This document shows positions 1 to 32,000 of a DNA stretch of 32,000 nt, piece by piece (the stretch's first letter is position 1; each line of letters opens with the position of its first letter). The notes beneath the pieces were generated by a model. The model saw nothing but the letters and a program-made list of their open reading frames with translations, did not search any database and had not been told where the DNA came from. The DNA is from Candidatus Saccharimonadota bacterium (GTDB lineage: Bacteria; Patescibacteriota; Gracilibacteria; BD1-5; UBA2023): the NCBI GenBank assembly GCA_042852035.1, contig BAAFHK010000002.1, positions 60,001 through 92,000 on the forward strand, given 5' to 3'. The translations under genes were made by a program, and so were the position numbers.

Positions 1-122
1 CTATCAATAGGGTTACTTTTCCATTTTTCCAACATGTACTATTCAATCCTGAAACTCTTGAAATTATAGATGAAACATCAGATCCTAATGATATACCTGA
101 ATGAACAATTATTAATTTCTAA
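1..122 (+). CDS. 3' end of an unidentified CDS (partial, continues upstream of window)
   Basis: The frame starting at position 3 is open from the window edge to TAA 120-122, with one in-frame TGA at 102-104. A hairpin terminator follows a few nt later. No motif recognised. Confidence 0.35.
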
Positions 123-126
123 AGAA

Positions 127-146
127 TCCCACCCCACTCGGTGGGA
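127..146 (+). terminator. putative rho-independent terminator
   Basis: TCCCACC (127-133) pairs with GGTGGGA (140-146), followed by a T-rich tract, directly after the TAA at 120-122. Confidence 0.5.
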
Positions 147-166
147 ATTTCTTCATTCACTCATTT

Positions 167-194
167 TTGACAAAAGTATTATAATATCTAAAAT
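167..194 (+). promoter_or_regulatory. putative sigma70-type promoter
   Basis: TTGACA (167-172), 16-nt spacer, TAAAAT (189-194), about 20 nt upstream of ATG 216. Confidence 0.4.
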
Positions 195-215
195 TCGAGA
201 AATACTTTTGTACAT

Positions 216-986
216 ATGACACAGAAAAATCTCTCATGAATGGCAAATACTCCAGAGTTCCAGCAGGCACGAATCCTCGCGAAAAATGGAGGGAGGGGAG
301 AGTGGACATTTTATACTACAATGTGACATATCGTGACGAAGATACTCGATATGGATCTCCGAGTAACCCTTCCTGACGGGAGTGTGATGCCACTTTTTAC
401 GACGGTGTGAGAAGTGAATACGTATTTCCGTATTCGTCCTGATCAGTATGGAGATACCCCGAATAGGTATGCTATGGATCATTTTGTCGGAGAAATGTAT
501 CGACGAAAAATAGCACCAATGGAACGAGCCATTCTCGATCCAGAGAAAGAGGGAATGAAAGATTTTTTTCGTTTGAATGTCTGGGAAATGCTTGTGGAGA
601 ATGATACTATTGACCAGCTCCTGGATGAGGTTGATGCTCTCGCAGATATGTGAATCGTATGAGTCGATAGGGCTGTCACTGGTGATGTTCGTGACTGGAT
701 CGTGAAGAATGCTTACCATAAGCAGAAAGACCTGTTTGATTGGTACCAACTTCCTCCAGAAACTCGGAAAGGATATTGCATTAATCTCCTTGATAGAAAC
801 CAATTTACAGACTATTTTGCTGATCTCGTGGTAGAGTATCCATGGCGAAAACACCCGATGAGTGCCCACCGGCAGATGAATATCATCCAGTCAAGAATCA
901 GAGCACTCTATGTGGTAGATGCGGACCTTGAGAAAGTGGTTGGAAAGGGGAAGTGAGACCAGATGAGGAATACGAGATATTTATAA
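216..986 (+). CDS. hypothetical soluble protein (256 aa)
   Basis: Track ORFs 414..653 and 702..956 lie in the same frame and join with the upstream segment through six in-frame TGA codons. ATG 216 (alternative ATG 240), TAA 984-986. No family motif recognised. The 211-aa antisense ORF 234..869 is treated as an artefact. Confidence 0.6.
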
Positions 987-1066
987 TTTATAAATTCCAA
1001 CCTCACTAGGAGAATTTTGTATTCATCTGAGAATATGGTAGACTCTTGGTATCCTTAGTTGTCATT

Positions 1067-1858
1067 ATGAAATCAAGAATCTTCTCTCTCGGACTCATGC
1101 TCACTATCATTTCTCTCGTAATAGTACCTCTCACAGATACCTTTGCACGTGCGGGAGGTGGGGGTCGGAGTGGTTGAGCGGGAGGTGGTATCGCCCTCGT
1201 CCTCGCTGGTATATACTATGCCATATATACTATCCGCCGAAAGAAGCTCCTGAAAAAAGCTCAGAAAAATCTCGAAAAGGCCCAATCGACAGATTCATCA
1301 TGGAATGAAGAAGAGTTTAAGGAGATTGTCAGAAAGACATTTTTCCTCTATCAGGATGCCTGGATGAATAAAAATCTCGAGAGTCTCGGAGAATACCTGA
1401 GTACTGACTATCTCGAGCGTGCGAAGGCAGATATGGCAGATATACTCGATGGGAAGAAAAATATCATCAAAGACCCAAAGATACGATCGCTCAATCTCAT
1501 CTCCGTGAAAGACACAGAAGGACATGAAGGGGATATGTTCGTCATGGAGATCATCGCTGCGATGATCGACTATACAGTATCTGAGAAGACGGGTGAATTC
1601 ATAGAATCGACTCTCACACAAGAAAAAAATGAAAGTGATGCGAGTTATGAGTCTCGAGCAAAAAGAGAAAAAGAAGAATTTACTGAGTTCTGGACATTTA
1701 TCCGTATCGATGGAAGATGGCAGCTCAATGATATCAAGCAAGGGGGAGTCCTCCTCAGTGATATCGGTTCGAATCCTTCTGAGTCAGAACTCAATGAAAT
1801 ACTCGCCAAAGAAGAGGCAACTGAGGAGATATCGGATGATATGTTTTATAAAAAATAA
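1067..1858 (+). CDS. Tim44-like domain membrane protein
   Basis: ATG 1067, one in-frame TGA (1175-1177) inside a GGGGRSGGAGGG tract, TAA 1856-1858. N-terminal hydrophobic segment MKSRIFSLGLMLTIISLVIV and a second TM, IALVLAGIYYAIYTI. Then WNEEEF..FLYQDAW..FWTFIRIDGRWQLNDI, the layout of bacterial Tim44-like proteins. Confidence 0.7.
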
Positions 1859-1969: not shown

Positions 1970-4441
1970 ATGAATCTTCTCCAGAGGACACGAGCGGTTT
2001 CTTGGTTGAGTCTTTCTCTAATAACCCTCTCCATCTCTTTGGAGAATATCGCTGCGGCTCCATTCCCGATGGATGGAAGCTTCACGGCTCGTACGATTCA
2101 GACGAATCAACAGGGAAGGGTCGCGAGAAATGCTTCTGTGACTATCCGCATAGGAGGACTTACTAATGGATTTCCAGCACTGAATAATACTTCGACACAA
2201 TGTTTTAATCAATCAGGAGAACCTCCTAAACCTTATGGTATATTTCTTGATAACACCTCTCTGAATATCAGTCAGTGTGAAGCCTATAATGGGACTAATA
2301 TTATTCGACTCTCCTGAGCCTTTATCATAGATCCATTTTTAGCTCCTACAACCAAAGCAACTCCGACACAAATCGCCAATGCGATCGTCGCACGAGGATA
2401 CCTCTACGAAAATGGGACAACGAATCAATCATTTACTGTCGCGAGTGCTGGCGGAAGTGATGTTGTATTCACTCGAACGAATACCAATGATGGGAATATC
2501 ATCTATACAAATAGTATCTTCGATTCTTCGGATGCATTTCGATTGATGAATTCAGTGAGTGGTCAGTCTCCACTCACGTCTCTCGTACAGCAGTCGACAT
2601 TTACGCCAGCGAATGTTGGTTCAGGAGAAATATATACTATGGATATCGAAGGATACACCTATGAGTATACGGCTCAAGCAGGTGACAGTGTGAGTAATGT
2701 AACAGCCGGAATTATTGCCGCATATAATGCAGCACCACTTGGAAACGTGAATTGTGTCGATCAAACGACTCGAGTCCTCTGTTCTGGAACGGTTGATACT
2801 CAGAGCTTCTCTATCGATGCGTATGTGACATACCCAAATCCAGATACAACCGCACCAATTGTAACCCTTCTCGGCAGTGCAAGTTATGCTCTCGAATATG
2901 GAACACCATTCACAGACCCTGGAGCAACATGGCTCGATAATCGAGATGGTACAGGTACCGTTATGGGCTCTGGTACCGTCGATCATATGACTCTCGGTAC
3001 CTATACGCTCAGCTATAACAAATCAGACCTTGCAGGAAATACAGCTTCCGGGAAGATGCGTACGGTCACTGTTGCAGATACAACGGCTCCAACTATCACC
3101 CTTCTTGGTTCGGATCCTGTGACCGTCGAGATAGATAGTGGATACGATGACGACTGAGCAGAATGGACGGATATCCGTGATGGTTCTGGTAGAGTGAATG
3201 CTCTCCCTTACACTATGAATGCCCTCGGGAATCTAACTCTGACGTATCAGAAAGTAGATGTTGCTGGAAATACTGGTACCGTTACTCGAACGCTTAATGT
3301 CGTCGATACCGTCGCTCCAACGCTCTCTATAAGTACAACTCCGACAACCGTCGATGCGAATGTATTCCCAGTACGAGGAAGTATCGGAGGGTATGGTAGT
3401 GTCACTATCTCAGGTGGAGCTTCCCCGGTTACCCTCTCGAATGTAAATAATAGCTTCACGGCCTATGTCCCACTCACACAAAATTCGGTCAATACCCTCC
3501 TTATCACTGCCACTGACCTCGGAAACAATGTCTCGACAGGGACAATTCTCATTACAGAAAGTGGTGCAGCAAATGGATTCTCTGGGGCAATCAATATGAA
3601 TAGATCAAGTCTTGCCCTTTCTGGTATAACATCACACTCTGGCTCAAGTCTTACTGGTGCAACTCGAGTACTCGTCGAAGCGCCAATATTCTTCTGAGGA
3701 AAGTGAGGCATAGGGACTATCCCAACAAATACGGTTATTACTCCTGCATCAGGAAGTGGTGTATTTGACGCTACGGCAATAAATACCTTCTCAGTGACTG
3801 TTACAGGTGGACTTGCACCAACAGATGTTTCAAAGGGTACTGTTGGATTCGGAATTTCTGAAATAGGATTACACTTTAGTAAGCCGGTAAAGATTGAGAT
3901 TCCCGTCAATGGATACAGTGGTTCGACGATAGCAGTAAAGGTACGTCATGGTGGTACATCAACATTTGTCACGACGGGTCTCACAAATAATCCAAATGCT
4001 ACCTGTACCAATGGTGTCGCATCATCACCCTCAAATATTGCTACCGTAGTTTCGAGTATGGCGACCATATATACATGTGCTGCTTCGGCATTTGTTGCTT
4101 ATACCGAGACAGTCACTTCAGTGACTTCATGAAGCTCAGGTTGAGGAAATTCAGTGGGATACATCCCTCCTACTCCTCTCCCTTGAACAACTCCTTCTCC
4201 TTCTTTTGGATCAGGGGCTTCATTAAGTACGGAAATTGCACGATTTAGTATCGATACAAAGTCACTTTCAAAATCAAAAGTCCTAAAAACAGCAACCTCT
4301 CTCAAGAATGGAACAAAAATAGTTGTCTATCGACTTTCTCTTGGATGAAGAGAGATTCGAGTCTGACAAACGAGAGTAAGTCGCTCGATGATTCAGTATC
4401 GAGTAAAGACAAAAGGAACTTATATTTTCCGAACAAAATAA
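1970..4441 (+). CDS. secreted surface protein with tandem DUF5011-type Ig-like domains (823 aa)
   Basis: Track ORFs 1970..2317, 2543..3157, 3194..3697 and 3794..4132 share one frame. All gaps were checked codon by codon and contain only TGA, no TAA/TAG. Stop is TAA 4439-4441. N-terminal signal-like MNLLQRTRAVSWLSLSLITLSISLENIAA. Two repeats of TAP(I/T)(V/I)TLLGS...(Y/E)..PGA.W.D.RDG.G.V...LG.YTL.Y...D.AGN....R.V.V.DT.AP match my memory of DUF5011. Confidence 0.7.
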
Positions 4442-4446
4442 ATATA

Positions 4447-4468
4447 AAAACTCCCAAATGGGAGTTTT
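4447..4468. terminator. bidirectional rho-independent terminator shared by convergent genes
   Basis: Perfect 9-bp stem AAAACTCCC / GGGAGTTTT with a 4-nt loop, flanked by an A-run and a T-run. It sits 5 nt after TAA 4439-4441 (+ gene) and touches the stop of the minus-strand gpx gene (4468-4470). Confidence 0.7.
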
Positions 4469-4944
4469 TATATAAGGCTCTTTATATCCTCATTTATCGA
4501 GAGAGGTGTAGTCGTTGGTGCATATCGTAGGACGACATTTCATTCTCGGTCTATGAGGAACTTCGTGAAGTTCCATTTGATATCATCCGTGAAGATTCCT
4601 CAGCGAGCATTTTTTAGGTACTGATAGAGTGGATGAGTGTTTTCTCCATTCACTTCTATCTTCGCAAAGATAGGGAAAGTGACTCCATAGTTGATTCTAC
4701 ATACTTCTTCCACGGTTTCATTCGTTTCCGGTTCCTGGTTTGCGAATTGATTGCAGGGGAATCAGAGGATAATAAAATCATCATGAGAATAGGTATTCCA
4801 GAGGGTCTCGAGTTCTTTGAGTTGTGGAGTAAGTCCACATTTGGTTGCGGTATTAACCACAAGAATTACCTTTCATGCGAATGTTTGCAATTGTATATTT
4901 TCACCATTTGTTTTTGTTATTTCGATATCGTAGAGAGAGGTCAT
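4468..4944 (-). CDS. glutathione peroxidase (Cys-type), 158 aa
   Basis: Minus strand, ATG at 4944-4942, TAA at 4470-4468, four in-frame TGA=Gly. Motifs [31 protein letters not shown] and [17 protein letters not shown] are classic GPx signatures. The active-site codon is TGT (4839-4837). Confidence 0.9.
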
Positions 4945-5035: not shown

Positions 5036-5698
5036 ATGAAGTTTGTTCATCCAAAATCGATACTTATATATACTATTATAGTTACGGGTCTTTTATTTTT
5101 GGTCGAAAATATATATCATCCTGTTTATATTCTTCAACTCCTGCAAAAAATCTGCTCATTTCTTCTTATCCCGATATTGGTTGCTTCTATTTTTAAAGAG
5201 ACGGTAGGGAAAGCTGGAAGTATGAGTCGATTCTGATTATTTCTTGGTATTGGACTCTGAATCATTTCAGCAGGGATTATTGCTCTCACGTATTCTTTTC
5301 TGCGAGAATATATTGATTGGCAGGCAATACACTCAAGTATGGAAGCCCGACATATTAATGAAAAAACCTTCACTATAATATTTCTCTATATAATGTTTGG
5401 GAATTCACTTCTCGAAGAATATTTTTTCCGTGGAATTATCTACTATCAGGCTTCACAGATTTCAAAACCTTTCGCCTATCTTCTCTCCGCGCTTATGTTT
5501 TCTCTCTATCATATTGTTATATTTTCGACATGGTTTTCTGGATATATTCTTGGGCTCGCTCTCTTTTGACTTTTTATGGGTGGAATATTTTTCTCATGGT
5601 TGTACGAAAAAACTGGAGGAATATGGAGTGCGTGGATATTTCACATTTTTGCCGATCTTGCTATACTTATCATCGGGTATGTTGAGTTTTTTACTTAA
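5036..5698 (+). CDS. CPBP family intramembrane glutamic endopeptidase (CAAX protease-like)
   Basis: Joins track ORFs 4952..5236 and 5339..5569 (same frame) through TGA codons. Start taken at ATG 5036 (MKFVHPK). Motifs EEYFFRG, FSLYH and WIFHIFAD are the three CPBP motifs. Multi-TM. TAA 5696-5698. Confidence 0.8.
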
Positions 5699-5704
5699 AA
5701 CATT

Positions 5705-6558
5705 ATGAAAATCTGATTTATCGGACTTGGACTTATGGGTATTCCCATGGCAAAAAATATTATCTCGAAGTGACGAGAACTTTTTGTGTGGAATCGTAGC
5801 AGAGAGAAGGCTTATGAGCTCGAAAATCTTGGAGCGAAAGTTTGCGATACGAAAAAGTCTCTCGCACAAGAGGTGGATATCCTTATAACCATGGTGACAG
5901 CAGGGGAGGATGTAGAGGATATACTTTTTGGATTTGATGGGGTAGCTTCGTCGATGAAATCAGGGAGTATCATCATCGATATGTCGACTATAGGTGTTGA
6001 TTGGGCTATGAAAATTGGTGAACGACTTCAGAAACATGGTATCTATTTTCTTGATGCTCCAGTAACAGGAAGTACCCCGAAAGCGATAACAGGAGAACTT
6101 ACAGTATTTATCGGAGGAGAGAAGGAAGTATTTGAAAAAATTAAACCACACTTGCTCTTATGGGGACGAATCTCCAATATATGGGACCTACAGGATCCTG
6201 ACAGGCCATGAAACTCGTGAACAACTCACTTGTTGCTTTTTCGATGATTGGTCTCGGAGAAGTGATGAAACTCGCTGATTTTATGGGGCTCCCACTTGCT
6301 CGCACGGCTGAAGTTATCAAAACCCTTCCCGTAGGATCCCCTTATACTGCGATGAAAGTCGATAATTTTGTAAAAAATGAATATCCTATGATGTTTTCTC
6401 TTGCAAACATGAAGAAAGATATCGCCCTTGCCTTCGAAGAAATGGAAAAACATGGTCTTTCTCTCGATATGCTCTCACTGGCGAAAGTGAAATATGAGCA
6501 AGGAGTTGAAGAAGGATTTGGAGGAGAAGATGTGTCAGCGATCGGTAAAATTCTTTAA
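5705..6558 (+). pseudogene. NAD(P)-dependent oxidoreductase of the 3-hydroxyisobutyrate dehydrogenase family, interrupted by a -1 frame change near 6150-6160
   Basis: N-terminal Rossmann half (MKIGFIGLGLMGIPMAKN...DAPVTGSTPKAITGELTVFIGGEKEVFEKIKPH) is in the frame of ATG 5705. The conserved continuation LALMGTNLQYMGPTGSGQAMKLVNN...GKIL is in the frame of 6208, which carries TAA at 6142-6144. The switch must therefore lie between 6145 and about 6160. This is either a genuine 1-nt deletion or an assembly error. Confidence 0.6.
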
Positions 6559-6569: not shown

Positions 6570-7340
6570 ATGTCCACTGTACTTATCACTGGAGCGTCAT
6601 CTGGGATTGGTTTTGAGTTTGCTCGCATTATGGCTCAAGATGGGTATGATCTTGTTCTTGTTGCCCGTCGCAGGGATGAGCTTGAGAGGGTTGCAAAAGA
6701 ATTTCCTCATAGGAAAATTATCCTTATCGAGAAAGACCTCTCGCTCACTCTCTCCCCGAGAGAGGTTTATGATGAACTTATAAAAGAGTGAATAGTGGTT
6801 GATATTCTCATAAACAATGCTGGATTCGGTGATTATGGATACTTTCATGAGACCGATATAGAAAAACAAAAACAAATGATAGATCTCAATATCCGAACCC
6901 TTACAGAGCTCACATATCTATTTGGTCGAGATATGATCGAAAGAAAGAGTGGAAAAATACTCAACGTTGCCTCTACCGCAGCGTTTCAACCCGGTCCACT
7001 CATGTCTGTATATTATGCGACGAAGCATTATGTTCTTGCTTTTTCAGAGGGGATTGCAGAGGAGTGGAGTACTTTTGGTGTAACAGTTACCGCACTCTGT
7101 CCAGGTCCTACCGAAAGTGGATTCCAAAAAGAGGCTCATCTTGAATCAAGTAAGCTGTTCCACGGAAAAAAACTTCCCACATCTCACGAGGTTGCTCAGT
7201 TCGGATATGAGGCCCTACTTCGTGGGAAGAGAGTTGCGATTCATGGGCTCATGAATCGCATCATGGCATGGAGTACTCATATAACCCCGAATTGGTTTCT
7301 CGTCAAAATCGTGAAATGGATGCAAGGGAAGAGAAAATAA
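6570..7340 (+). CDS. SDR family oxidoreductase
   Basis: Track ORFs 6564..6791 and 6795..7340 are in frame and joined by one [11 protein letters not shown] cofactor motif, NNAG, and YYATKHYV (YxxxK active site). ATG 6570 preferred over TTG 6564. TAA 7338-7340. Confidence 0.85.
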
Positions 7341-7408: not shown

Positions 7409-9508
7409 ATGCAGGCAAAATTTGAAGAAACGGATAACCGAAATCCTCTCGATAAATATACCATAAATCTTACCGCATTAGCTAAAGATGGAAAAATCGA
7501 TCCAGTAATTGGTCGAGAAGATGAAATCTATCGTACTATTCAGATTCTTTCTCGTCGAACAAAAAATAATCCAGTTCTTGTCGGCGATCCATGAGTGGGG
7601 AAAACAGCAATAGTCGAGGGGATTGCTCGAAAAATCGTGGCACATGAAGTTCCTGAGATGCTTTTTGATCGAGAAATTCGCACCCTTGATCTTACTTCCC
7701 TTATTGCTGGAGCAAGCTATCGTTGACAGTTCGAAGAGCGCCTTAAGTGAGTAATAGATGAGGTCGAAAAATCAGAAGGGAAGATTATCCTTTTTATTGA
7801 TGAGCTTCATACGATTGTCTGAGCTTGAGCGACCGAAGGGAGTTCGGATGCAGGAAATCTCCTTAAACCTTCTTTAGCACGTGGGCGTATTAAAGTTATT
7901 GGTGCAACCACTATTTCAGAATATCGAAAATATATCGAAAAGGATGGGGCACTAGAACGTCGATTTCAGCCGATTCCCGTGGAAGAACCAACTCGAGATG
8001 ATGCCGTTGCTATTTTGAGAGGACTTAAAGATCGGTATGAATTATTTCATGGGATTCGGATTTCAGATGATGCTTTAGTAGCAGCGGTCGATTTCTCGAT
8101 TCGCTATATTGGAGATCGAAAACTCCCTGATAAAGCCATCGATCTCCTTGATGAAGCAACATCGAGCGTGAAGATGCGTTCGTATTCTCGACCGATTGAG
8201 CTCGATAAAATAGAAAAAGAGATCCGTTCTCTCGAAATCGAAAGAGAAGCCATAAAAGAAGAGAAGGACAAAAAGACCCGTCTTTCAGAGATTGAGGAAG
8301 AAATTACCCTTAAAAAAAGTTCCCAAGAAGAATTCTTAAAAGATTGGACAGCATCAAAGAAGAACCGTGATCGGATAAAGTTCCTTCAAAATGAAATTCT
8401 TGAACTTGAGAAACAAGCTGAAGAGTTAACTTATAGTGGTGAATATGCAAAAGTAGCAGAAATACGCTATGGCAAAATTCCAGAAAAAAAGAAGGAACTT
8501 GATCTTATAGAATGAAGTGCCACCTGTAATGAGACCGTGAAAGAAGATGATGTAGCAGGAATTGTCGGAAAATGGACTGGTATACCTGTCTGAAAGCTTC
8601 TGGAGAAGGAGAGCGCTATTTATGCTCATTTAGAAAGTGAACTCGAAAAATTTGTAGTGGGACAAGATGAACCTCTTCGTAAAGTATCTGAGGCTCTTCG
8701 TCGTTCCAAGGCTGGACTTTCTGACCCGAATAGACCAATAGGATCATTTCTCTTTCTTGGTCCTACGGGGGTTGGAAAAACAGAAACAGCAAAAGCTCTT
8801 TGTCGTATCCTCTGGAACAATCCACATGCCTATATTCGATTTGATATGAGTGAGTATATGGAGGCCCATAGTGTAGCAAGGCTTATTTGAGCTCCTCCTG
8901 GATACATTGGACATGAAGAAGGTGGGCAACTCACAGAGGCTATTAGACGTCATCCATATTCTGTCATACTCCTTGATGAAGTTGAAAAAGCTCATCCTGA
9001 TGTGTGGAATATTTTTCTTCAGATTCTTGATGAAGGTCGTATCACAGATGGGAAGGGGAGAACGATAGACATGAAGAATACCATTATTATCATGACTTCA
9101 AATATCGGAAGTCATCTTCTCGATGAGAATAACGAAAAAAACCTCGAAAAGAAAATGAGAGAGGAGCTTAAAAAATTCTTCCGTATCGAATTCATAAACC
9201 GGATTGATGAAATTATTATTTTTCGCCCACTTTCTCATGAGAGTGTCTTAAAAATTGCAAGCATTCTTCTCAGAGAGGTTCAGAGTCAACTCTTAGAAAG
9301 AGAAATTAATCTGACTTTTGATGCAAGTATTCTTGAATGAGTAGCAAAGCTTTGATATGATGCTGAACTTGGCGCCAGACCTATACGTCGTGCTCTGAGT
9401 GAATATGTAATAAATCCTCTCTCAAAAATGATTCTTGATTGAGTTATTCAAACATGAACTACAAAAGTAGCCTTATTTGACAGAGACTATAAACTAGTAT
9501 TAAAATAA
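7409..9508 (+). CDS. clpB: ATP-dependent chaperone ClpB, naturally lacking the N-terminal domain (699 aa)
   Basis: Track ORFs 7403..7594, 7979..8515, 8657..8890 and 9002..9340 share one frame, and the gaps contain only TGA. Motifs: [41 protein letters not shown] (Walker A Gly is TGA 7592-7594), a coiled-coil middle domain, [21 protein letters not shown] (TGA 8888-8890), [12 protein letters not shown] and GARPIRR. TAA 9506-9508. Confidence 0.9.
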
Positions 9509-16858: not shown

Positions 16859-17104
16859 TTAAGAAGGTCAAAACATAATTTTCTCCTTCTCAATTCTTGA
16901 GAGCTTTTTGATAGCAATTTCCCGTTTTCTTGCATCACTTTCATTCTCATATTTCTCAAAATATATAAGTTTTACTGGTATTCTTCCACGAGTATACTTT
17001 GCTCATTTTCCACTATTATGAACTTTAAGTCTATTCTCTAAGTTATTAGTATACCCCGTGTAGTATGTATTATCATTACATTGAATGATGTAGGTAAAAT
17101 ACAT
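16859..17104 (-). CDS. GIY-YIG nuclease family protein (UPF0213/YhbQ-like, 81 aa)
   Basis: Minus strand, ATG 17104-17102, TAA 16861-16859. [70 protein letters not shown], where the Gly of GKGAKYT is TGA. The N-terminal extension in track ORF 17003..17215 is not needed. Confidence 0.85.
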
Positions 17105-19845: not shown

Positions 19846-19984
19846 AGAGCAAATAGGTTATTTTTTTGGCGGATAATAGTGAAAAAATAAAAAAACTCAA
19901 ATATTTATTGGAAATATAAAAATATATTTGACAAATTACCATCAAATATATTGCTTCAATACAATACCAATATGAAAAAATATG

Positions 19985-20441: not shown

Positions 20442-21824
20442 ATGACTCACATAGTCTCCTACAATCCCTCAAATAACGCAATCCTTTGAAAGGTGGCCAT
20501 TACTGCGCAACCTCAAATTGAAGATATAACTCTTGAGGCGCATGATGCCTTTCTGCTCTGGAAAAAAACTCCACTTAAGAAGAGAGTAGATTTCCTTCGG
20601 GAGGCATATGGTTTATTCCTCTCAAGAAAAGAAGAACTCGCTCAGAGTGTAGCAAGTGAAATGGGTATGCCTATAAAGCTCGCTAGAGATGAGGTTCAGT
20701 ATGGGTTGAATTACTTTATTTGGTACCTAGATAATGCTGAAAAATATCTCTCTCCTGAGGTTACTTACGAGAATGAAGGAGAAATTCATACGGTATACTA
20801 TGAGCCGAAGGGGGTTATTGCCGCGATTACACCATGGAATTATCCATTTATGCTTTTTGCTTGGGCATGTATTCAGCCTCTTCTCGCCTGAAATACGGTT
20901 ATATGGAAGGTATCAAAAGAAGTAATCCTTACGGGGAAACTCATAGCATCTATAATGAACGAATCGAATATACCCAAAGGGGTATGGAGTGAAGTATACT
21001 GAGATGGTGCAATAGGGGATTTTCTTACGGATTTAGATATTGATGGTATTGCTTTTACGGGAAGTACAAATGTCGGAAATCACCTTGCGAAAAAGTGAAA
21101 TGAAAAGGGAATTCCCGTTATTATGGAACTAGGTTGATCTGCGCCAGGAATTGTCTGTGAGGATGCCGATATTGATGCTGTTTTAGAGACGATTTATTTC
21201 ATGAGATTTTCAAACTCATGACAGATGTGCGATGGTCTTAAACGCCTTATAGTCCATGCTTCACGTTATGATGAACTTGTTAAAAAGCTCTCAAAGAGAC
21301 TTCTTGAGAAAAAAATGGGAGATGCTTTGGATGAAACGGTTGATATTTGACCTATTGTTTCAGAAAAGCAAAAACTTATTCTTCTTGATCAGTATAATGA
21401 CGCTCTTGAGAAAGGAGCAAAAATACTTGCTGAAAATAAAAGTTTTCCAAACGACGCAGTTGGTTCATATTTTCCAGCAACTCTTCTCGGAAATATTCAA
21501 AAGGATATGAAGGTTTGGAAAGAGGAAGTATTTGGTCCAATTCTTCCTATAATCTCTTATAATTCGCTTGAAGAGGCTATTGAGCTTGCAAATGATACTC
21601 TTTATGGTCTCTGAGCGTATGTTTTTACGAAAGATATGAATACCTTTCATATTCTCGCGCATGCTATTGAAAGTGGTATGGTACAATGTAATAATATCAA
21701 TTATTGCATCCCCCAAGATCCATTTGGTGGCTATAAATCTTCATGAATTGGTCGTGAACATGGAAAATGGGGTTTTTATGAGTTTGTAAATATCAAAGTA
21801 ATTTCTCTTCCTAAGACGCTCTAA
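20442..21824 (+). CDS. NAD(P)-dependent aldehyde dehydrogenase (460 aa)
   Basis: ATG 20442, TAA 21822-21824. Extends track ORF 20493..20891 through TGA codons. ITPWNYPF, FTGSTNVG, MEL-G-G-SAP (second Gly is TGA 21135-21137), FSNS-G-QMC (Gly is TGA 21219-21221; catalytic Cys 21228-21230) and EEVFGPI. Confidence 0.9.
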
Positions 21825-22471
21825 TGTCTCAAAGCGCTATTTTTGCATCCATCTCGATATTTCTTTATTATCTAGGATTTATCCCATACATCTACCATGT
21901 TTTTCATGGGCGAGTTGTTCCACATCCCTTTAGTTGGAGTATTTGGTTCATATTTTCTGTTACCAACCTTTATATTCTTATTGTCACTACTGGTATTGAA
22001 GCATCATTTTACTCACTACTCGCTCGTACATTCGCCCTTGCGGTATGAGTATTTTGTTGATGGTGGTTCATAAGGAAGATATCTATTACCCGCTTTGATT
22101 ACTTCTCCATTCTTATGGCACTTCTTGTGATTATCTTTATGAATCTTTATGGTATGAAGCAGGCAATAGTAGCAATGGTTATAACCGATATAATCGTACT
22201 TCTCCCGACACTGAGAAAGATATGGGTTGATCCAAGAACCGAAGATGCTATAGCTTGGTTTATGACAGCACTTTCACAAGGATGTTTACTTTTATCACTT
22301 CCATTTCTTACTTTTGAGAATTCATTCTTTTGGTTTTATGCCATTTGCGTGAATCTAAGTGCAGGATTATTTATTCATATTCTCAGGAGACAGAGGGAAA
22401 AAAGATTTATTGTTCGTATAGAAAATTTGTATTTCAAGTGTATCGAATCTTGGAAAAGACTTTTGCATTAG
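21824..22471 (+). CDS. hypothetical six-TM membrane protein (215 aa), translationally coupled to the aldehyde dehydrogenase
   Basis: The ATG 21824-21826 overlaps the TAA of the upstream gene (TAATG). Track ORFs 21824..22048 and 22115..22471 are in frame and joined by two TGA codons. Hydrophobic throughout. No family recognised. Confidence 0.6.
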
Positions 22472-22512
22472 AAGAAAAAGTATGGTAGGCTACAGAGGTA
22501 ATTTTCTATTCT

Positions 22513-23931
22513 ATGTCACAAAATCACACCAAAGCACATGATTATGCAAAAACCTGGATTGATATTATAAAAAATAAAAATCATCCTGATAAAGAACTTT
22601 CTGAATGGATTATCTCTGAATCACTTGAGAATTTTAGCGAACACTTTAATAAAGGATGGCTTGATAATAGAAAATCAGTCACACAATGAGGTATGTGGGC
22701 TGCAACTGAGTGGCAAGGAAAATGAGCCATATTTGAAGATGTGATGGGACGAACATATATTGATTGGCTTTGAGGATATGGATTATTTTCTCATGGATGG
22801 TCTCATCCTGATATTGTTGCTACTGTACAGGCACAACTTCTCCACAATCCAATGCCTTCCCAAGAACTTATTGATCCACTTCGAGGAGTGCTTGCGAAAC
22901 TTCTTGCTGATATAACTCCTTGAGATCTCAAGTACTCATTTTTTTGTGCGAGTGGAACCGAAGCAAATGAAGGAGCTATTAAATTAGCAAAGATGTACAC
23001 TAAAAAGTCAGCATTTATCTCCACAGTAAATGCATTTCATGGGAAGACTATGGGATCGCTTTCAATGATGGGAAAAGCCCTTTATCGCGAGCCAGTATGA
23101 GAAATGTATGGTTGACCAGTATACTTCGTAGAGTATGGAAATGTTTGAGCAATGAAGACTCAACTTGAAACCTGTAAAAAGCTCTGAATCTGAGTTGCTG
23201 GTGTAATCATTGAGCCAATTCAATGAGAGGCTGGTGCGATTGTTCCACCAGATGACTATTGGCCTAAAGTAAGAGAACTTACGAAGGAATATGGTGCTCT
23301 TCTTATTGCTGATGAGGTCCAAACATGACTTGGTCGTACAGGGGAGACTTTTGCGGTTAATCACTGGGGTGTTGTTCCAGATATTATGACTCTCGGAAAG
23401 GCTCTTGGAGGTTGAGTTATGCCGATTTCTGCATTTGTTTCAACGGAGGAAATTTGGCAGTGTATGATGTATCCAAATCCATTTATTCACACTACCACAA
23501 CAGGAGGCTGAGCCCTTGCATGTAGTGCTGCAATTGCGGGAATAGAAGTAATGCTCAGGGAAGATTTTCCTAAACAGGCTCGAGAGAAATGAGAGTATAT
23601 GATGGTGCGACTCCAAAAATTCGTCAAAAAGTATCCAGAAATTTATGAATCAATTTCCGGAAAAGGTCTTCTTATAGGCCAACATTTTACTTCCAAAGAA
23701 GTTGGCTATCAAGTTGCTTCAGAACTTTTTCACAGGGGAGTATTGGTTGGATGAACTCTCAATAGTGCAAAAACGATTCGTATCGAACCTCCTCTTATAA
23801 TAAGCTATCAGGAGATAGATCGGGGTCTCGATATTCTTGAGGAAGTGCTTGATTACATCCAGAAACAGATTCATTCGAATGGAAAATCAAACTTCTTCGC
23901 AGAAATAAAAGGGAAAAAAGAAGAAAAATAA
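22513..23931 (+). CDS. patA: class-III aminotransferase, putrescine aminotransferase-like (472 aa)
   Basis: Not present in the + strand ORF track because of about 20 TGA codons. ATG 22513, TAA 23929-23931. It reads co-linearly with my memory of E. coli PatA/YgjG: NRKSVTQGG..EWQ, LKYSFFCASGTEANEGAIKLAK, AFHGKT, EPIQ-G-EAG (TGA 23224-23226), DEVQT-G-LGRTG, LGKALGG-G-VMP (PLP Lys 23398-23400; TGA 23413-23415) and AKTIRIEPPL. Confidence 0.8.
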
Positions 23932-23940
23932 AAAACTTAT

Positions 23941-23969
23941 TTGCCAAAAGAAATATAAATCTATATAAT
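23941..23969 (+). promoter_or_regulatory. putative promoter of the glutamate dehydrogenase gene
   Basis: TTGCCA (23941-23946), 17-nt spacer, TATAAT (23964-23969), 35 nt upstream of ATG 24004. Confidence 0.5.
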
Positions 23970-23984
23970 GAGAATAATTCTCAT
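23968..23984. promoter_or_regulatory. 17-bp palindrome (candidate operator) overlapping the -10/+1 region of gdh
   Basis: ATGAGAAT-A-ATTCTCAT: perfect 8-bp arms around one central base, starting inside the TATAAT box. Confidence 0.35.
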
Positions 23985-24003
23985 TATAAATAAACTTTAT
24001 TCT

Positions 24004-25251
24004 ATGAAAACAAACCCATTTCTCTCTGCTCAGAAGCAAATGACAACGGCTTATGAATTTCTCAAGGGGAAGTATGATGATGAATTTCCACGTCTTCTTT
24101 CACCAGATCGAGTTATAGAGGTCTCTATTCCTGTAAAAATGGATAGTGGTGAAGTAAAGGTATTTACAGGCTTTCGAAGTCAGCACAATTCATCAAGAGG
24201 TCCATATAAATGAGGTGTGCGTTACCATCAGGATGTAACACGGGAAGAGGTTATGGCGCTTTCGATGTGGATGAGTATAAAATGTTCTACCCTTGATCTT
24301 CCTCTTGGTTGAGGGAAATGAGGTATAATAGTGGATCCAAAGACTCTTTCAAAAAGAGAGCTCGAAGCTCTTTCGCGAGGATGGGTGGATCAACTCTATA
24401 AATATATTTGACCTCTTGACGATGTCCCAGCACCTGATGTGAACACGAATGGTGAGATTATGTCATGGTTTGTTGATGAGTACTCTAAACTTGTTTGACA
24501 TTGGTCACCATGAGCTATCACAGGAAAGCCTATTTCTATCGGATGATCTCTTGGTCGAGATACGGCGACAGCACAAGGAGGGCTTTATGTTCTTGAAGCA
24601 TATCTCAACTGAAAGAATGATTTCCTCAAGTGAAAGAAAGTAGTAATCCAAGGAGCGGGGAATGCTGGACTTAATATGATAGAACTTATCGCAAAATCTT
24701 GAGCTATTCTTATTGCTACATCTGATTCACACTGAGGAATTTATAACGAAAATGGGCTGAATGTTGATGAGATAATTCGTCTCAAGAAAGATAAAAAATC
24801 ACTTGGTGAATATACTGGAGGGGGTACTATTTCTAATAGTGAACTTCTCGAGCTTCCTTGTGATATTCTTATTCCAGCAGCCCTTGAAAATCAGATTACC
24901 CTTGAAAATGCTTGAAACATTCATGCGAAACTCATCCTAGAATTAGCAAATGGTCCTATAACTCCCGATGCTGATGAGGTTCTCTATAAAAATGGAATTC
25001 CAGTAATTCCAGATATACTTGCAAATGCCTGAGGAGTTACGGTCTCTTACTTTGAACAGGTGCAAAATAGCATGAACTATTATTGGTCAAAAGAAGAAGT
25101 TCAGGAGAAATTGAAATTAAAAATGGAGAAGGCCCTTTATGGAGTTGTGAAATCGGCACAAACGCATTGAGTCATGCTTCGAACCTGAGCTTACGTAGTT
25201 GCACTTGAGCGCATTCTTGAAGCCATGAGAGCCCGATATGCAATTAAATAA
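24004..25251 (+). CDS. gdhA: glutamate dehydrogenase (Glu/Leu/Phe/Val dehydrogenase family, 415 aa)
   Basis: ATG 24004 (upstream ATG 23968 lies in the promoter), TAA 25249-25251, about 20 in-frame TGA. RGPYK-G-GVRYH. Catalytic loop LPLG-G-GK-G-GI with TGA at 24310-24312 and 24319-24321. [10 protein letters not shown] dinucleotide fold, and [16 protein letters not shown]. Confidence 0.9.
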
Positions 25252-25337: not shown

Positions 25338-27359
25338 ATGCACACAAAAAGTCAGCAAGCCTTTAGAAAATGAGCTATTATATTTGCATCCTTTCTTTCG
25401 GGTGTTGTCATAACGGTTTTTGCAGCTGCGACCTATGACGCAAGTATTCAGGAACGATCAGCAAAAATGCTTGCTGCCATCAAAAGTAATGCCACGAATC
25501 TTAACTCAGATGATGCAGTGGCATATTATTCACTTGTACGAGAAAATATCAAAACCCTTATTGCAGTTCTTACAGAAGTTGATAAAGGACTTGCTGTACT
25601 CTCCAATGATGGAAATATTATTCCTTCTCCAGGAACTACTTCAGGAACTTCAAATCCTGCAAACCCTACAAATCCAGGCACAGCAACCGGTACAAGTGGA
25701 GGTATTGTATGTAGTGGTACCTATCCAAAATGAGATCCGAATGCTTCATTTTGGCCGAACGGTGGATTTGTGACCTGACCATCAATAACAGACCAATCCA
25801 ATCGAGTCTGGAAATATAAGTATGCTGGTACTTGTATGTTTGATTGTGTAACGGGATATACGTATAATACCGTTAAGAATATTTGTGAAAAAGATGCCTA
25901 TGCTTGGTCTTGTGGTTTTACAACAGGAGGATCTGCTGCTGATCCAAGTACATGTAATGCTAGTACCGTTGGTACACATTCAAGCAATAATTGTACCTGT
26001 GAGCTTACAGGTGGACCGAAAGGAAGTCCTATTTCCTTTACGGTTCCAGAAGGAGTGTTTGATATGGCAGCACCTAAAACCCTTACAACTCGCTTAGATA
26101 AAGTTGGCGCTCAAACTCTTCTTCTTTGTCAGGAAATCCTTTCCCATCCGCTTGCAACAGTAACCAAAAATGAAGGTGCATGTCAGAATTCTTATGCCTA
26201 TTCGCCCCTTCCTGCTTCATCTTGATGGAAATATACGAATTGAGGATATGATGTAGTCGTTCCTTATGATGCTACTATTTGGGGAGCTGCAGGAATAAAA
26301 ACTCGATTCTTCGTAAAGGATAAAACAACCAATCAAATCGCAACCTATACTATTAGTGTAAAAAATAGTGGATCAGCCACTCCTCCGGGTACAGGAACTC
26401 CTCCGGGTACAGGAACTCCTCCGGGTACAGGAACTCCTCCGGGTACAGGAACAAACCCGAATCAAGATCCAGTAGTTTGTACTGGAAATCTCCCTACAGC
26501 AAATGTTGTTTCTTCCATACAGTCTACGTATTCTATGGTGGGATATGATAGCACAAATAGAACGTGGAAATATGGATTTAATGGCACATGTTCATGGTCA
26601 TGCGCAAAATGATATGTAGTAAATACAACAAAGACAGCATGTGAACCACCTAAACCAGGAACTGGTATATCTATTACTGTGGTTGATAAAAGCGGTGCGC
26701 CACTAGCATGAACGGCTCTTTGACTTGTTTATAATCCGAATGCATGAGAAAATGGGTGGACCACTAATCCAAATGGATTTGTTGAGATTTTTCCTGAAGC
26801 TTGATATTCAGCCGGAGTACTTACTATTAATAAGGCAGGATATATTATTTTCTCAGCAGAATGATGTTCAAGTCGAAATGGCGTAGCCTCTACTATTGGT
26901 GGGCAACCGTATTCATACTGTGACAGTACCCCTCTTGCTCCTGGAACAAAGATTAAGGTCGTCATGATGTCTACACCATCAAACTTTCAAAATTTCTCCT
27001 TCCAAAACCTCCAAAATGGAGAGGGAGTATTTTATATCAATGACACAAGAAATCATCTTATTACTACAAAGATTTCATGAGTTTCCCTGGAGGATACTCT
27101 CTCTTGTGTAGAGATACTTGCTCATCCAAATTATCCAAATCTTGTCAATGAAGGGTATTGTTCAGATGCTTCTCATTTTACTCCTTTTTCTGGAAACTCA
27201 GAGTGGGCATGGTCCGCAGAAAGCGGTGGTACTTGGACAGGAAATATTAAATATAGCGATGAGATATATGGTGCTGCAGGTATCCGAGTAAGAGTATTTA
27301 TGAAAAATAAATCAACTAATCAATCAGCAAGCTTTGTTATCGCGGTGTATAAGTCATAA
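25338..27359 (+). CDS. membrane-anchored or secreted Cys-rich protein with internally duplicated modules (673 aa)
   Basis: ATG 25338 to TAA 27357-27359, with every codon checked. Joins track ORFs 25467..25733 and 25836..26225. N-terminal anchor AIIFASFLSGVVITVFAAA, low-complexity PSPGTTSGTSNPANPTNPGTATGTSGG, two Cys-rich modules, two longer modules ending ..GAAGI(K/R).R.F.K.K(T/S)TNQ.., and a 4x TPPGTG linker. Confidence 0.65.
26379..26450 (+). repeat. perfect 4 x 18-bp tandem repeat (ACTCCTCCGGGTACAGGA) encoding (TPPGTG)4
   Basis: Four identical units at 26379-26396, 26397-26414, 26415-26432 and 26433-26450, in frame within the Cys-rich protein gene. Confidence 0.95.
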
Positions 27360-27373: not shown

Positions 27374-28174
27374 ATGAAAAATCACTCGCTCATCCACCGT
27401 TCCATTCTCATTTCATGACTCATTTTTTTTAGTGGCGCTATTTGCTCCCATGTTAATGCGGATGTTTTTGATGATGAACTTAATGGCCTTCTTACAAAGC
27501 CAACTATCACTACTGAAACACTTGCTGATGGCTCAATAGTATCAACGGTCTCAATTTGATGATCTTCAAGTAGTGCTACTTCCTGATATATTACATTTCC
27601 TGATGGTGTAAAAATCCAATTTAGCAAACCCTCTTCCGGTCCAACTACATTTGTGAACTTAAGTAACGGAACAAAAACAGTATGTATCGGGAAGAGCTGT
27701 AATGGAAATATGAATATATCTCCATCGTTTCAATCATCTTTCTCATCTTTGAGTCAGTCAATCGCATCAAATAATGTTGCTTATAATTCTAATAACTCCG
27801 GTCCAATGACCGTAATCGTAAGTGAAAAAGTCCCTTGAGCCGTTTGTGTCTGTTATATTGGATGACCAGGTGCTAGCGAAGCTACCTGTGAAGCAGCAAC
27901 TGTTGAGACTCGTCTCTATCAGTGTACTGTAGATCGAGGTATGACTGCCTTTCAGAATCTCTTTCGTGATATAATAAAGTGGACTATCTATATTATCATG
28001 CTTCTCTGAGTTCTTGCTCTTGTATGAGCCTGAATACTCTGGGCATGGGGAAGTGAGAGTGAGGAGTACACAAAGAAAGCAAAATGATGGGCAGTGAATA
28101 TCATCGTATGACTCGCAATACTCTTTACCTTCCGTTATATACTTGGATTTCTTGCTCCTTGGATATTTATGTAG
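27374..28174 (+). CDS. secreted protein with C-terminal TrbC/VirB2-like (T4SS-pilin-like) two-TM domain (266 aa)
   Basis: ATG 27374, 14 nt after the upstream stop. TAG 28172-28174. Frame checked; 12 or more TGA codons. Signal-like MKNHSLIHRSILISGLIFFSGAICSHVNA. The C-terminus is FQNLFRDIIKWTIYIIMLLGVLALVGAGILWAWGSESEEYTKKAKGWAVNIIVGLAILFTFRYILGFLAPWIFM: two TM helices around a short charged loop, as in VirB2/TrbC-type pilins common in CPR. Confidence 0.6.
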
Positions 28175-28194
28175 AAAGGATATTTATGTAGAAA
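28161..28194 (+). repeat. perfect 2 x 17-bp tandem duplication (GGATATTTATGTAGAAA) spanning the stop codon
   Basis: Copies at 28161-28177 and 28178-28194. The first contains the last codons and the TAG of the pilin-like gene. Confidence 0.9.
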
Positions 28195-28219
28195 TAAGTA
28201 TTCTTTTAGTAAAATAAAA

Positions 28220-28237
28220 TCCCCAGAAATCTGGGGA
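28220..28237. terminator. hairpin between the pilin-like gene and the convergent tRNA-Lys
   Basis: TCCCCAG (28220-28226), AAAT loop, CTGGGGA (28231-28237). A/T-rich runs on both sides. Confidence 0.45.
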
Positions 28238-28249
28238 ATTATTATCGAA

Positions 28250-28325
28250 TGGTGGAGATGCCGGGGCTCGAACCCGGGACCTTCGCCTTAAAAGGGCGCT
28301 GCTCTACCTACTGAGCTACATCTCC
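28250..28325 (-). tRNA. tRNA-Lys (anticodon UUU), 76 nt with encoded CCA
   Basis: The reverse complement reads GGAGATG TA GCTC AGTAGGTA GAGC A GCGCC CTTTTAA GGCGA AGGTC CCGGG TTCGAGC CCCGG CATCTCC A CCA. Full cloverleaf: 7-bp acceptor, 4-bp D stem, 5-bp T stem with a TTCGAGC loop, and an anticodon loop CT-TTT-AA. There is one G-A mismatch at the top of the anticodon stem. Confidence 0.9.
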
Positions 28326-28531
28326 ATTATAGATTTATTTGGTTTTTATCTGGAGTGAAGATAGATTCTTGAAGAAGCGTCTATCTCTCGGCTTTTCCTC
28401 TACGGCTTGCGCATCATATACAAAAATAAATCTTTGTCGAATTTTTTTTCACTTTTTATCGATTTTCCTTTTGCAATAGAGAAAAAAAAGCATATATTGA
28501 CCCACGAACACGTGCCAAAATTTCACCCGTT

Positions 28532-31500
28532 ATGAAGTTTAAGAAAAAGAGCTTTTCTTTCATTCATCAGTACATTTCTGCTGTATTGATTTTTTTGCTG
28601 TTTATTTCTCAGACCATTCATGTATCATTCTTTGATAAAATTGAGGCTGCTACAACAGATTATCGTGATATTGTTTCCCTCATCGTGGATGAGGATACCT
28701 ATAGTGCTCTTCGAGGGCAAATTCGAACCTATGCAAATGATATACAGGGCTACTTAAAGAATACTCGGGTAACCATTTATGTGGCTCCATCGACGGCTCG
28801 TCCTGAAGTTATAGCCGCTCATAATGAAAAACTCTACTATGAATGAGATGGTCAAAATGGTATCTCCTCGCTCATAGGAACTATAATAATAGGAAATATT
28901 CCAATCCCTGTTGTTCATAAAGAAGGAACATCATTCCCAAGTCTCTACCCATATGTTGATTTTGATGACAAAAGATTTGTTTATGATACCACAACCAAAC
29001 GATATAACTTTTCACAGGAAACAAATGAATGAAGTGATGTTGATATCTGGCATGGTGTTATTAACCCTGCAGTTTGAACTGATTGGGATGCAGCTATAGA
29101 TATTCCGAAGATAGGATTATTTCTTGATAAGACTCACGATTTTTATACCCGATCAGGAAAATTTACTCCTCAAACACTTCCCCCAAGAGTGTATTATTAT
29201 GATGGTTATGCTGAGAGCCTTTCGACGGATCCAACCACAATGTATAAATATGCCCTTTTTACGCAAAATGCTGAAAATGTGGAATATAAACGTTGGGGAA
29301 AGGCTCTTTTAGGAGATATTACAACTTCACTTGCTCAATTTCAAAAAGCAAACAGTGGTGCTGAGGATGCATATGCTGAATCTATTCTTTGACCATGAGC
29401 TGCAATCGGAGATGAATCAATTGATCCAGCAACTCTAGAATCACTACCAGATATTCAGACAGCAACCCCGATTATGTCATATCTCAAGAGATTTCATGAG
29501 ACTATAAACAAGAAAACTCTCTCTGATATTCAAGAATATGTTCATAATGCAGGTCGATATAATTCTGGAATTAATGTCCGAGTGGATCAAGGAGCTGTTC
29601 AGGTAAGTATTACGGATCAGGTTTCTATGGATGTCCTGAAGAATGCTAATGATGCTATCGAGTCATCGATTGATTCTATCCTTACTACAAATAGCTATGC
29701 CCGTCGAATCCCGATACTTAATGGCATTTGGGAACGATCACCTATACTTACGAATACTGTTGGAGCTATACCTGCTTCGGTAGCTGCAAATCCTCTTGTT
29801 GAATATAAAAACTATTACTTTGGAAGAGAGGCACAAACGATAACAAGCCCAGAACAGTGTACCATTGCTCGATGATGGAGCGGTACTACTGATCTATTTA
29901 AGAGACCTCTTCTTGCGGAGGCAAATGTCATGTACAATCTTAATAGTGTACAGGGTCATATTGGATACCTCTCATGAGATACTGATACGATGGTGCAGCT
30001 TTGGAGAAACGCCACTTATGCCTGTTTTACTCAAGCCTGAACCCCCAAGCTTGATTCATACTTCTGAGGAAATAGCCTTCTCAGGCTTATGGTAACTGGA
30101 GAGGATCCAACAACATTCTTAAAATCCCCTCCATCAGGAACCGCACTTACTGGATTTTCACTCCCTATTTTTGATATTGAGGGAATGAAGGAGACCACCA
30201 GACTTCCAAATCCTTCACTCGCTGACTGTACTTGAAATCGTTTCCAATACACTCTTCTTCAGCCACATACATTTTCCTATGATGTCAATGACTCTTGGAG
30301 CTATAATGGATGAACTTATAATTGTACCTGAGGGTACCCTCTTGAGTGGACGAACTCTACTTCCTACTGTCCGAATAATGCTCTTACAAATAGTCCAAGA
30401 TTTACTTGTAATACAGTTCATACCAGTTATCCTGGATGAAGCTCGATGGCTGATTCCCTCGCTGTCTATAACACTCCTTGTTACTATGGAACTCTTGTAA
30501 TTGATGGAAAATATTTTAATAACACAACATCTCTTTCAGTTGGGCAGGTAAACCTTTGAAGTCAGTGTATTATACCAGGAAATGCCTACAATGGTATCCC
30601 CGATGTCGATAATACTGTATATCAGAATCGAGTCTTCCATACTATTCCATCCCTCCTTAAGCATGTCTCACCAACAAGTGCTGAAATTGCTGCAGCGAAG
30701 GCAAATGGAGCAAGTCCATCAATTCCAGTTGATGCAATACGGACGGTTGAGTTTCTCACTCAAAAATGAGGAACAGCACGACTTACATATCCAAATTTCT
30801 TTGAAGCTCCAACGACGTCTATCGCTGATGTTCGTGCCTGGCTTAAAACACTTTCTGATACTGAATGGAATGGAATCATAGCTGCAGAAAATGCACGCGT
30901 ACAAACTGCACTTGATCGAAATGTTGCTTTGAGTCTCTGAGCAAATCCACTCCCGAATGCCCCAATCGACTGGAACACTCTTATTACTGATGATGTAATC
31001 GAAAAAATAATACGAGCAAAACGTTCCCTAGCTCCAAATGTCACAAAAAAATATCAGAATCTTCTCGAGGCGGGTCTTTCATATTCTCATACATCTTCTG
31101 GAGATATACTGGATAATCCACTTCCACTTCCGAAACTATCACAAGGGTATGAAATTGCATACCTTTGATTGACTCCATTTACTCCAAAATGACAGGCAAG
31201 TGAAGAAGATGCTTCTCTTCAGGGATACCAATATCAGCTTTGAGAACTCCAATGACTCAATTTCGTAGAACAAGACCCAGCACTGACTGATCCTGACCCT
31301 TCGATAAAAGCTCAAGCTGAATGTGGGCCGCCAGATGGTGTGCCATTATTTCAGTGGCCTTCAGCGATACAGTGTTGGATTAAGACTCTCTTCCCAGTAA
31401 AGATTGTTCCAGGATCATGTGGCTCAAACACGATTTGAATTGCACAAGGTACGCTCTCAAGTGCTCCACCTCCAATAGCAATAGCAGGGGATAGCGCAAG

Positions 31501-32000
31501 CCTTCGTACATATTATAGTAATGCTCAGATAGTATACAGCATTGAGCGAACTATGATACAGCCAGGATGAAATATAGAAATACAGTACTATCTTAATAAT
31601 AATGGGGTATTGGTAGAACTTCCTCCAGATGCTTCGATAGATTTAAATATTTCTTCGGTTACGGCAAGCGGGCAAAATATTTCACCAGATAAATATGGTG
31701 AGTATGTTACTCTTTCTTCATCGAATTGAACCTATACGAATGAAGGGGCATCATTTGTGGTCAATTCTATATGACCTTTTGCTGACATTTCATTGGTTCC
31801 AAAACTTACCGTTCCACTTCCTGATGGAACAATATATGAAAGTATCGGTGCACAGATGGTTCTCAAGGTTCGAGATGAATATGTCGATATTCTTCCAAAA
31901 GCAGGAACAATCCCAGTATCTTCATTTGAAACAACAAGTACTGAAGCATTAACACTCAATTTCGAAGCAAAGCAAGGAACGGGTATAAATATACCAACTT
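28532..32000 (+). CDS. giant secreted protein of unknown function (partial, >=1156 aa, continues beyond window)
   Basis: The frame of ATG 28532 was checked codon by codon to position 32000 and has no TAA/TAG, with more than 30 in-frame TGA. It joins track ORFs 28532..28846, 29189..29392 and 29474..29875. N-terminal anchor or signal: MKFKKKSFSFIHQYISAVLIFLLFISQTIHV. No catalytic or repeat motif recognised. Confidence 0.7.

Follow-up and report, generated by a model that had tools for sequence, protein, structure and literature searches.

The window analysed here is a 32 kb stretch of contig BAAFHK010000002.1 (positions 60 001–92 000; GC content about 39%). It carries a run of genes, listed below by window position, that are interrupted by TGA under the standard genetic code. 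The subject of this report is the meaning of that codon, which almost certainly specifies glycine here, as in translation table 25. The number of in-frame TGA codons is given after each gene for which it was counted.

Gene content and reading frames

1–32000, whole window: genetic code 25, with TGA as Gly and only TAA and TAG as stops (from ORF length, coding density and decoding tests)
216–986, plus strand: g01, 256 aa, no Pfam match; 6 TGA
1067–1858, plus strand: g02, membrane protein with a Tim44-like domain (PF04280); 1 TGA
1970–4441, plus strand: g03, 823 aa secreted protein with bacterial Ig-like surface domains (PF16403); 9 TGA
4468–4944, minus strand: glutathione peroxidase-like gene (PF00255, 138 bits); 4 TGA
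5036–5698, plus strand: g04, CAAX (Rce1-like) protease (PF02517); 3 TGA
5705–6558, plus strand: g05, 3-hydroxyisobutyrate-dehydrogenase-like, with a frame change near 6145–6155 (PF03446 and PF14833 in different frames)
6570–7340, plus strand: g06, short-chain dehydrogenase (PF00106); 1 TGA
7409–9508, plus strand: ClpB-type disaggregase, 699 aa, no N-domain (Pfam and alignment to E. coli ClpB); 12 TGA
9615–16784, plus strand: g08, 2389 aa surface protein with DUF11/DUF7507 repeats, an LPQTG motif and a C-terminal sortase domain; 44 TGA
16859–17104, minus strand: GIY-YIG domain protein, 81 aa (PF01541); 2 TGA
17104–17649, minus strand: g09, membrane protein; 8 TGA
17652–18302, minus strand: g10, MarC family membrane protein (PF01914); 6 TGA
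18367–19845, minus strand: g11, ABC-F type double ABC ATPase (Pfam and orthologues); 3 TGA
20442–21824, plus strand: aldehyde dehydrogenase (ALDH; alignment to SSADH 8of1, Pfam); 9 TGA
21824–22471, plus strand: g13, conserved membrane protein between ALDH and the aminotransferase (related loci); 2 TGA
22513–23931, plus strand: class III (putrescine-type) aminotransferase (alignment to E. coli PatA, Pfam); 15 TGA
23968–25251, plus strand: glutamate dehydrogenase (GDH; homologues, Pfam), of which the database copy starts at 24004 and is 415 aa; 15 TGA
25338–27359, plus strand: g16, 673 aa secreted protein with a (TPPGTG)n repeat, no Pfam match; 12 TGA
27374–28174, plus strand: g17, 266 aa, weak T4SS-pilin-like C-terminus; 11 TGA
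28250–28325, minus strand: tRNA-Lys(UUU), the sole tRNA of the window
28532–32000, plus strand: g18, more than 1155 aa, secreted protein that continues past the window edge, no Pfam match; 24 TGA

An Rfam search of the window returned nothing but the tRNA. On the basis of Pfam matches and orthologues, a plus-strand open reading frame (ORF) at 18496–19890 was rejected and the ABC-F gene on the minus strand retained.

Under the standard code (table 11), the longest stop-to-stop stretch in the window is 280 codons. When only TAA and TAG are treated as stops it is 2397 codons, and further open stretches of 1190, 833 and 707 codons appear. The best non-overlapping set of table 11 ORFs consists of 62 pieces with a median length of 97 aa that cover 62% of the window (coding density 0.62), compared with 22 genes, a median of 269 aa and coverage of 94% (coding density 0.94) when TGA is sense. 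Variants in which TAG or TAA was sense produced no ORF gain in the window. As the initial annotation had held, genes are broken at TGA throughout, and at least one in-frame TGA was found in each of the 18 protein-coding models and in two further small ones, with up to 44 in a single gene (g08).

Across 9673 codons there are approximately 188 in-frame TGA codons (five of them spurious, from the final part of g05, which the model reads out of frame), and this count is far above chance expectation. No in-frame TAA or TAG was found inside the models across the same 9673 codons. Pfam domains align end to end across the TGA codons, as in ClpB, where AAA_2 is matched from position 1 to 166 of 166. 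The description of all delimited genes as ending in TAA or TAG is borne out by the 19 models with a visible end, as 16 of them (including the GIY-YIG and glutathione peroxidase-like genes) end in TAA and three in TAG. UAA and UAG remain the terminators, and no gene requires a TGA stop.

The eight triplets that had been cited in support of glycine are all TGA, in frame and in the motifs assigned to them. With X marking TGA, those in ClpB are in GDPXVGKT (Walker A; 7592–7594) and LIXAPPGY (8888–8890), those in ALDH in ELGX (21135–21137) and NSXQMC (21219–21221), and those in the aminotransferase in EPIQXE (23224–23226) and ALGGXVMP (23413–23415). The remaining two (24310–24312 and 24319–24321) are in LGXGKXG, the GGGKGG loop of GDH. 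A GIY-YIG motif, GKXAKYT, that had been reported without coordinates was found on the minus strand at 16991–17011 (TGA at 17003–17005; PF01541, 73 bits).

The residue specified by TGA

TGA was kept as X in the queries to keep the decoding answer unbiased. When the TGA columns were compared with solved structures from organisms that use the standard code, Gly was found at 8 of 15 columns in GDH (Pyrococcus/Thermococcus GDH structure), at 9 of the 11 aligned columns in ClpB (E. coli ClpB, including Walker A and LIGAPPGY; the gene contains 12 TGA), at 10 of 15 in the aminotransferase (E. coli PatA, including EPIQGE and ALGGG) and at 6 of 9 in ALDH (SSADH 8of1, including ELGG and NSGQ.C). Pooled, 33 of 50 columns are Gly, a result with a probability of 6e-23 for 33 or more (binomial, 9% Gly background). 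The contrary case, in which TGA columns correspond to Trp, was looked at in the same alignments, and Trp was found at 0 of 50 columns overall and in none of the four proteins. The claim that the TGA codons fall on invariant glycines therefore stands for about two-thirds of the TGA columns; the remainder are at variable positions occupied by A, S, K, E, N, D and others.

A larger reference set was available for GDH. A profile scan of genome contigs yielded at least 80 loci, and the 77 without in-frame TGA were taken as standard-code. Among the matches listed, which are mostly standard-code GDHs, no relative above 56% identity was present. Pooled over the 77 orthologues, the 15 TGA columns of GDH are 68% Gly and 0% Trp. 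The summed log-odds are +34.7 bits for Gly, -57.9 bits for Ala, the next best residue, and -94.2 bits for Trp. Control codons were all decoded correctly (GGN as Gly, TGG as Trp, GCN as Ala, CGA as Arg, and also the Ser and Cys codons), and among codons with at least three columns TGA alone departs from table 11.

The initial annotation had proposed that Gly and Trp translations be compared by score for ALDH, patA, gdh and clpB. The Gly version scored higher in all five Pfam families: Aldedh (445.5 versus 409.4 bits), Aminotran_3 (317.6 versus 279.7 bits), ELFV_dehydrog (265.3 versus 232.9 bits), ELFV_dehydrog_N (186.0 versus 163.0 bits) and, for ClpB, AAA (87.0 versus 69.7 bits). The Trp version costs 23–38 bits in each of the four ALDH, PatA and GDH domains. 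Gly accounts for 6.8% of codons when TGA is left out and for 8.7% when it is counted, and UGA makes up approximately 22% of the Gly codons of the window; Trp content would reach 3.1% if TGA were Trp.

Codons were also compared with those of close relatives, at the DNA level and independently of annotation; eight related loci (L001, L002 and L081–L086) supplied 32 pairs of orthologous genes. Window TGA codons (n=304) are opposite GGN in 197 cases (65%), TGA in 58 (19%) and TGG in none. Conversely, window TGG codons (n=193) are opposite TGG in 180 cases and never opposite TGA, and 135 of 838 window GGN codons (16%) are opposite TGA. As TGA aligns with GGN or TGA and never with TGG, it behaves as a synonymous Gly codon. 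The relatives come from independent samples and assemblies and show the same in-frame TGA pattern.

Four independent lines of evidence agree on Gly rather than Trp, and with it on table 25 over tables 4 and 11, as first suggested. In every gene UGA is translated as Gly instead of acting as a stop, and all other codons tested keep their standard meaning. We conclude with high confidence that the window comes from a BD1-5-type Gracilibacterium (GTDB class JAEDAM01) in which UGA encodes Gly according to table 25.

Clade, decoding machinery and alternative readings

The nearest named GDH relatives are labelled 'Candidatus Gracilibacteria bacterium' and are 74–75% identical to the GDH of the window. 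The block comprising ALDH, the membrane protein, the aminotransferase and GDH is syntenic in L081 (GCA_013268835.1), L082, L084, L085 and L086, where the orthologues are 41–90% identical and the contigs likewise contain in-frame TGA. The ABC-F, MarC, ClpB and giant protein genes are also common to some of these related loci. The best named matches and the syntenic, TGA-bearing contigs agree with the placement in Gracilibacteria or Absconditabacteria that had been proposed.

Loss of release factor 2 (RF2) is the accepted route of UGA capture. UGA serves here as a fifth glycine codon, and termination is left to UAA and UAG. Clade knowledge from outside the window suggests that UGA is decoded by a tRNA-Gly of its own (anticodon UCA; identity set G1:C72, C2:G71, G3:C70 and U73) and that RF2 (prfB) is lost, with RF1 presumed to terminate at UAA and UAG. 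The tRNA identity rules and the UGA to Gly reassignment have been described for Gracilibacteria and Absconditabacteria (PMC8629427), and prfB is absent from all BD1-5 genomes, in which prfA is present (PMC6851277). According to the account in PMC6851277, UGA as Gly was validated by proteomics by Hanke et al. 2014 (PMC4032931).

A structural pattern that combines anticodon UCA with the Gly acceptor identity set was run on a metagenome collection. As a control, the UCC variant of the pattern was run on 1.39 Mb of sequence, where it matched the two known tRNA-Gly(UCC) genes and nothing else. The UCA pattern matched at least 120 metagenome stretches (L087–L206), and in 99 of these ARAGORN found ordinary cloverleaf tRNAs of 74–79 nt with anticodon tca. 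Two families account for 94 of the tRNA(UCA) loci. In family A (53 loci) the gene reads GCGGATATGATG... and is followed by an Ala-Tyr-Arg-Glu-Leu tRNA array, and in family B (41 loci) it reads GCGGGGGTAACATAA... and adjoins tRNA-Gly(GCC/UCC). Most of these loci are on low-GC contigs in which ORFs are 3- to 10-fold longer with TGA as sense. CGA and CGG occur 38 and 13 times per 10,000 codons in family A contigs, like Absconditabacteria, and 79 and 34 times in family B contigs, which the window resembles. Family A is probably a marker of Absconditabacteria and family B of BD1-5. In the window and its relatives, the tRNAs are more similar to those of family B than of family A contigs (Gly-UCC, 0.84–0.92 versus 0.72–0.82; Arg-UCU, 0.83 versus 0.76), and for Lys-UUU the similarity to family B contigs is 0.87.

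The window shares with the table 25 organisms of Gracilibacteria/BD1-5 the presence of in-frame UGA in all genes on Gly columns, UAA and UAG as the only stops, CGA and CGG kept as Arg, a low to moderate GC content and its nearest named relatives. Its GC content is above the 28.9% of a closed BD1-5 genome (Sieber et al. 2019, PMC6851277) and inside the reported range of 0.21–0.53. Table 25 has been assigned to GTDB class JAEDAM01 (orders BD1-5 and Absconditabacterales), and many NCBI entries named 'Candidatus Gracilibacteria' use table 11 (gTranslate preprint). Two of the loci compared here illustrate this. In L003 (OY760177.1, 10001–11215), a 1.93 Mb chromosome labelled 'Candidatus Gracilibacteria', GDH is free of in-frame TGA, indicating the standard code. 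In L001 (CAZFWS010000084.1, 2026–3258), labelled 'Candidatus Peribacteria', GDH contains nine in-frame TGA, one of them at an invariant-Gly column. In line with the preprint, NCBI labels do not track the genetic code.

Several points weigh against assigning table 25 to a BD1-5-type source. Distant homologues have a residue other than Gly at approximately one-third of the TGA columns. The GGN codons of the window behave alike (74% Gly), and such a non-Gly share would be expected for any Gly codon. The evidence for Gly at UGA in this organism is at the level of DNA. Neither a tRNA(UCA) nor a release-factor gene is present within the 32 kb window, and this genome's decoding machinery is thus predicted from the clade. 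The tRNA(UCA) was not found in nine related loci either; with no such locus on contigs of close relatives, the link to the lineage of the window is a weak tRNA similarity. The placement itself is based on best matches, synteny and codon usage.

In one alternative reading, the source belongs to Absconditabacteria (SR1), sister order to BD1-5 in JAEDAM01, where UGA is likewise Gly and an additional reassignment of CGA and CGG to Trp is predicted, with CGA below 37 and CGG below 7 per 10,000 codons (Shulgina & Eddy 2021, PMC8629427); table 25 alone would then mistranslate the window. CGG to Trp is also predicted for some Gracilibacteria (PMC8629427). The shared UGA decoding and the basis of the placement leave room for such a source. 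However, CGA is the commonest Arg codon of the window at 102 per 10,000, with CGG at 18.6 per 10,000. CGA decodes as Arg (+25 bits, including four columns at which each of the 77 GDH orthologues has Arg), and CGG is opposite Arg codons in 25 of 38 cases in the relatives and never opposite TGG; CGG has one column only in the standard-code GDH test and its decoding rests mainly on this comparison. CGA and CGG to Trp was rejected on these grounds. In addition, the named best matches are all Gracilibacteria, and none is labelled as Absconditabacteria, and the tRNAs are closer to those of the CGA/CGG-rich family B contigs. An Absconditabacteria source is therefore improbable. Gracilibacteria/BD1-5 is favoured on codon usage and decoding, and as CGA and CGG are both read as Arg, plain table 25 is enough.

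Equally improbable is a non-canonical route to Gly at UGA, for example by a tRNA(UCA) outside both families, by a retained RF2 with context-dependent termination, or with a rare codon (CGG, for instance) reassigned in part, a change that a window of 32 kb would be too short to expose.

Somewhat less probable again is a dual or context-dependent UGA that is mostly Gly and acts as a terminator or specifies selenocysteine at some sites. DNA evidence of the kind used here leaves space for this, but the 19 visible ends are against it. The C-termini of the window proteins coincide within a few residues with those of standard-code homologues, and the last in-frame TGA of ClpB and of GDH is 16–20 codons before the gene end, within aligned regions. 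The glutathione peroxidase active site is Cys rather than TGA, and the reported absence of prfB from BD1-5 genomes (PMC6851277) also counts against UGA termination. Selenocysteine recoding, in which one UGA per selenoprotein would be expected at a catalytic Cys/Sec column together with a SECIS element, was rejected given the number of TGA codons per gene, their location on Gly columns and the active-site Cys, and because the tRNA(UCA) genes found in metagenomes are class I tRNAs of ordinary length.

Table 4, in which UGA is Trp, is used by Mycoplasmatales, Hodgkinia, Nasuia, Zinderia, Stammera and some Eggerthellaceae. These systems have captured the same codon and leave the same ORF-level signature, so that ORF structure alone cannot tell tables 4 and 25 apart. 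Moreover, a public protein collection contains the GDH of the window (P0001) as translated by table 4, with each of the 15 TGA sites given as Trp (e.g. LGWGKWG). Six GDH columns are invariant Gly in the 77 standard-code orthologues, and Trp occupies at least one of them in 71 of the 120 nearest entries (P0001–P0120). The window differs in that the residue is Gly and Trp is excluded: all four decoding tests reject table 4, from the structure columns and GDH log-odds to the Pfam scores and the reciprocal absence of TGA–TGG pairs in relatives, and the Trp content that it produces is implausible. We regard table 4 as refuted by these tests. That the window follows table 11 and is pseudogenised or error-ridden, with its TGA codons as real stops or artefacts, deserves next to no credence. 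One gene, g05, does have a frame disruption, but TGA is abundant in frame where TAA and TAG are wholly absent, the frame is kept and domain matches are full length through every TGA, the TGA sites are specifically Gly columns, and independent relatives show the same pattern.

Individual genes and consequences of the genetic code

The four-gene block at 20442–25251 (plus strand) looks like a diamine or amino acid catabolic module with glutamate recycling. The ClpB protein is only 699 aa long, and its alignment with E. coli ClpB begins at residue 155 of the latter; it is thus without the N-terminal substrate-binding domain. Its orthologue in L086 is 702 aa.

In the secreted protein g08, an LPQTG sorting-type motif at residue 2109 is followed, approximately 85 residues further on, by a fused C-terminal sortase domain (residues 2195–2313, TLFTC). 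The fusion of motif and sortase is kept in a 2409 aa orthologue in L082. It is unusual for a sortase to be fused to what appears to be its own substrate.

In g05, NAD_binding_2 is in the frame of 5705, and NAD_binding_11 (80 bits) is in that of the gene end at 6558. The change of frame may reflect pseudogenisation, an error of assembly or a programmed frameshift; no intact orthologue was found in the related loci compared. A perfect tandem repeat in g16 (26379–26452; 18 nt, 4.1 copies) encodes (TPPGTG)n, and g17 and g18 have signal-peptide-like N-termini and no family assignment.

Many glutathione peroxidases have a TGA-encoded selenocysteine at the catalytic position. The homologue at 4468–4944 (minus strand) has a catalytic Cys (TKCGLT), and its four TGA codons read as ordinary Gly codons, e.g. 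IL[TGA]FPCNQF as ILGFPCNQF.

The initial annotation recognised the phenomenon as a known one, and the window is indeed a standard case of table 25, which has been established since 2013. It was reportedly described in that year in Gracilibacteria/BD1-5 by Rinke et al. and in Absconditabacteria/SR1 by Campbell et al. Nothing in the window departs from the established picture. However, the 71 GDH entries with Trp at invariant-Gly columns indicate that table 4 mistranslation of code 25 organisms is widespread. Table 4 gives the right gene lengths but places Trp at catalytic and structural glycines such as those of the ClpB Walker A motif and the GDH GGGKGG loop. For domain assignment, structure prediction and homology searches on the window, table 25 should be used. 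The large surface proteins and the amino acid/polyamine catabolic cluster can be viewed in the context of a BD1-5-type source.

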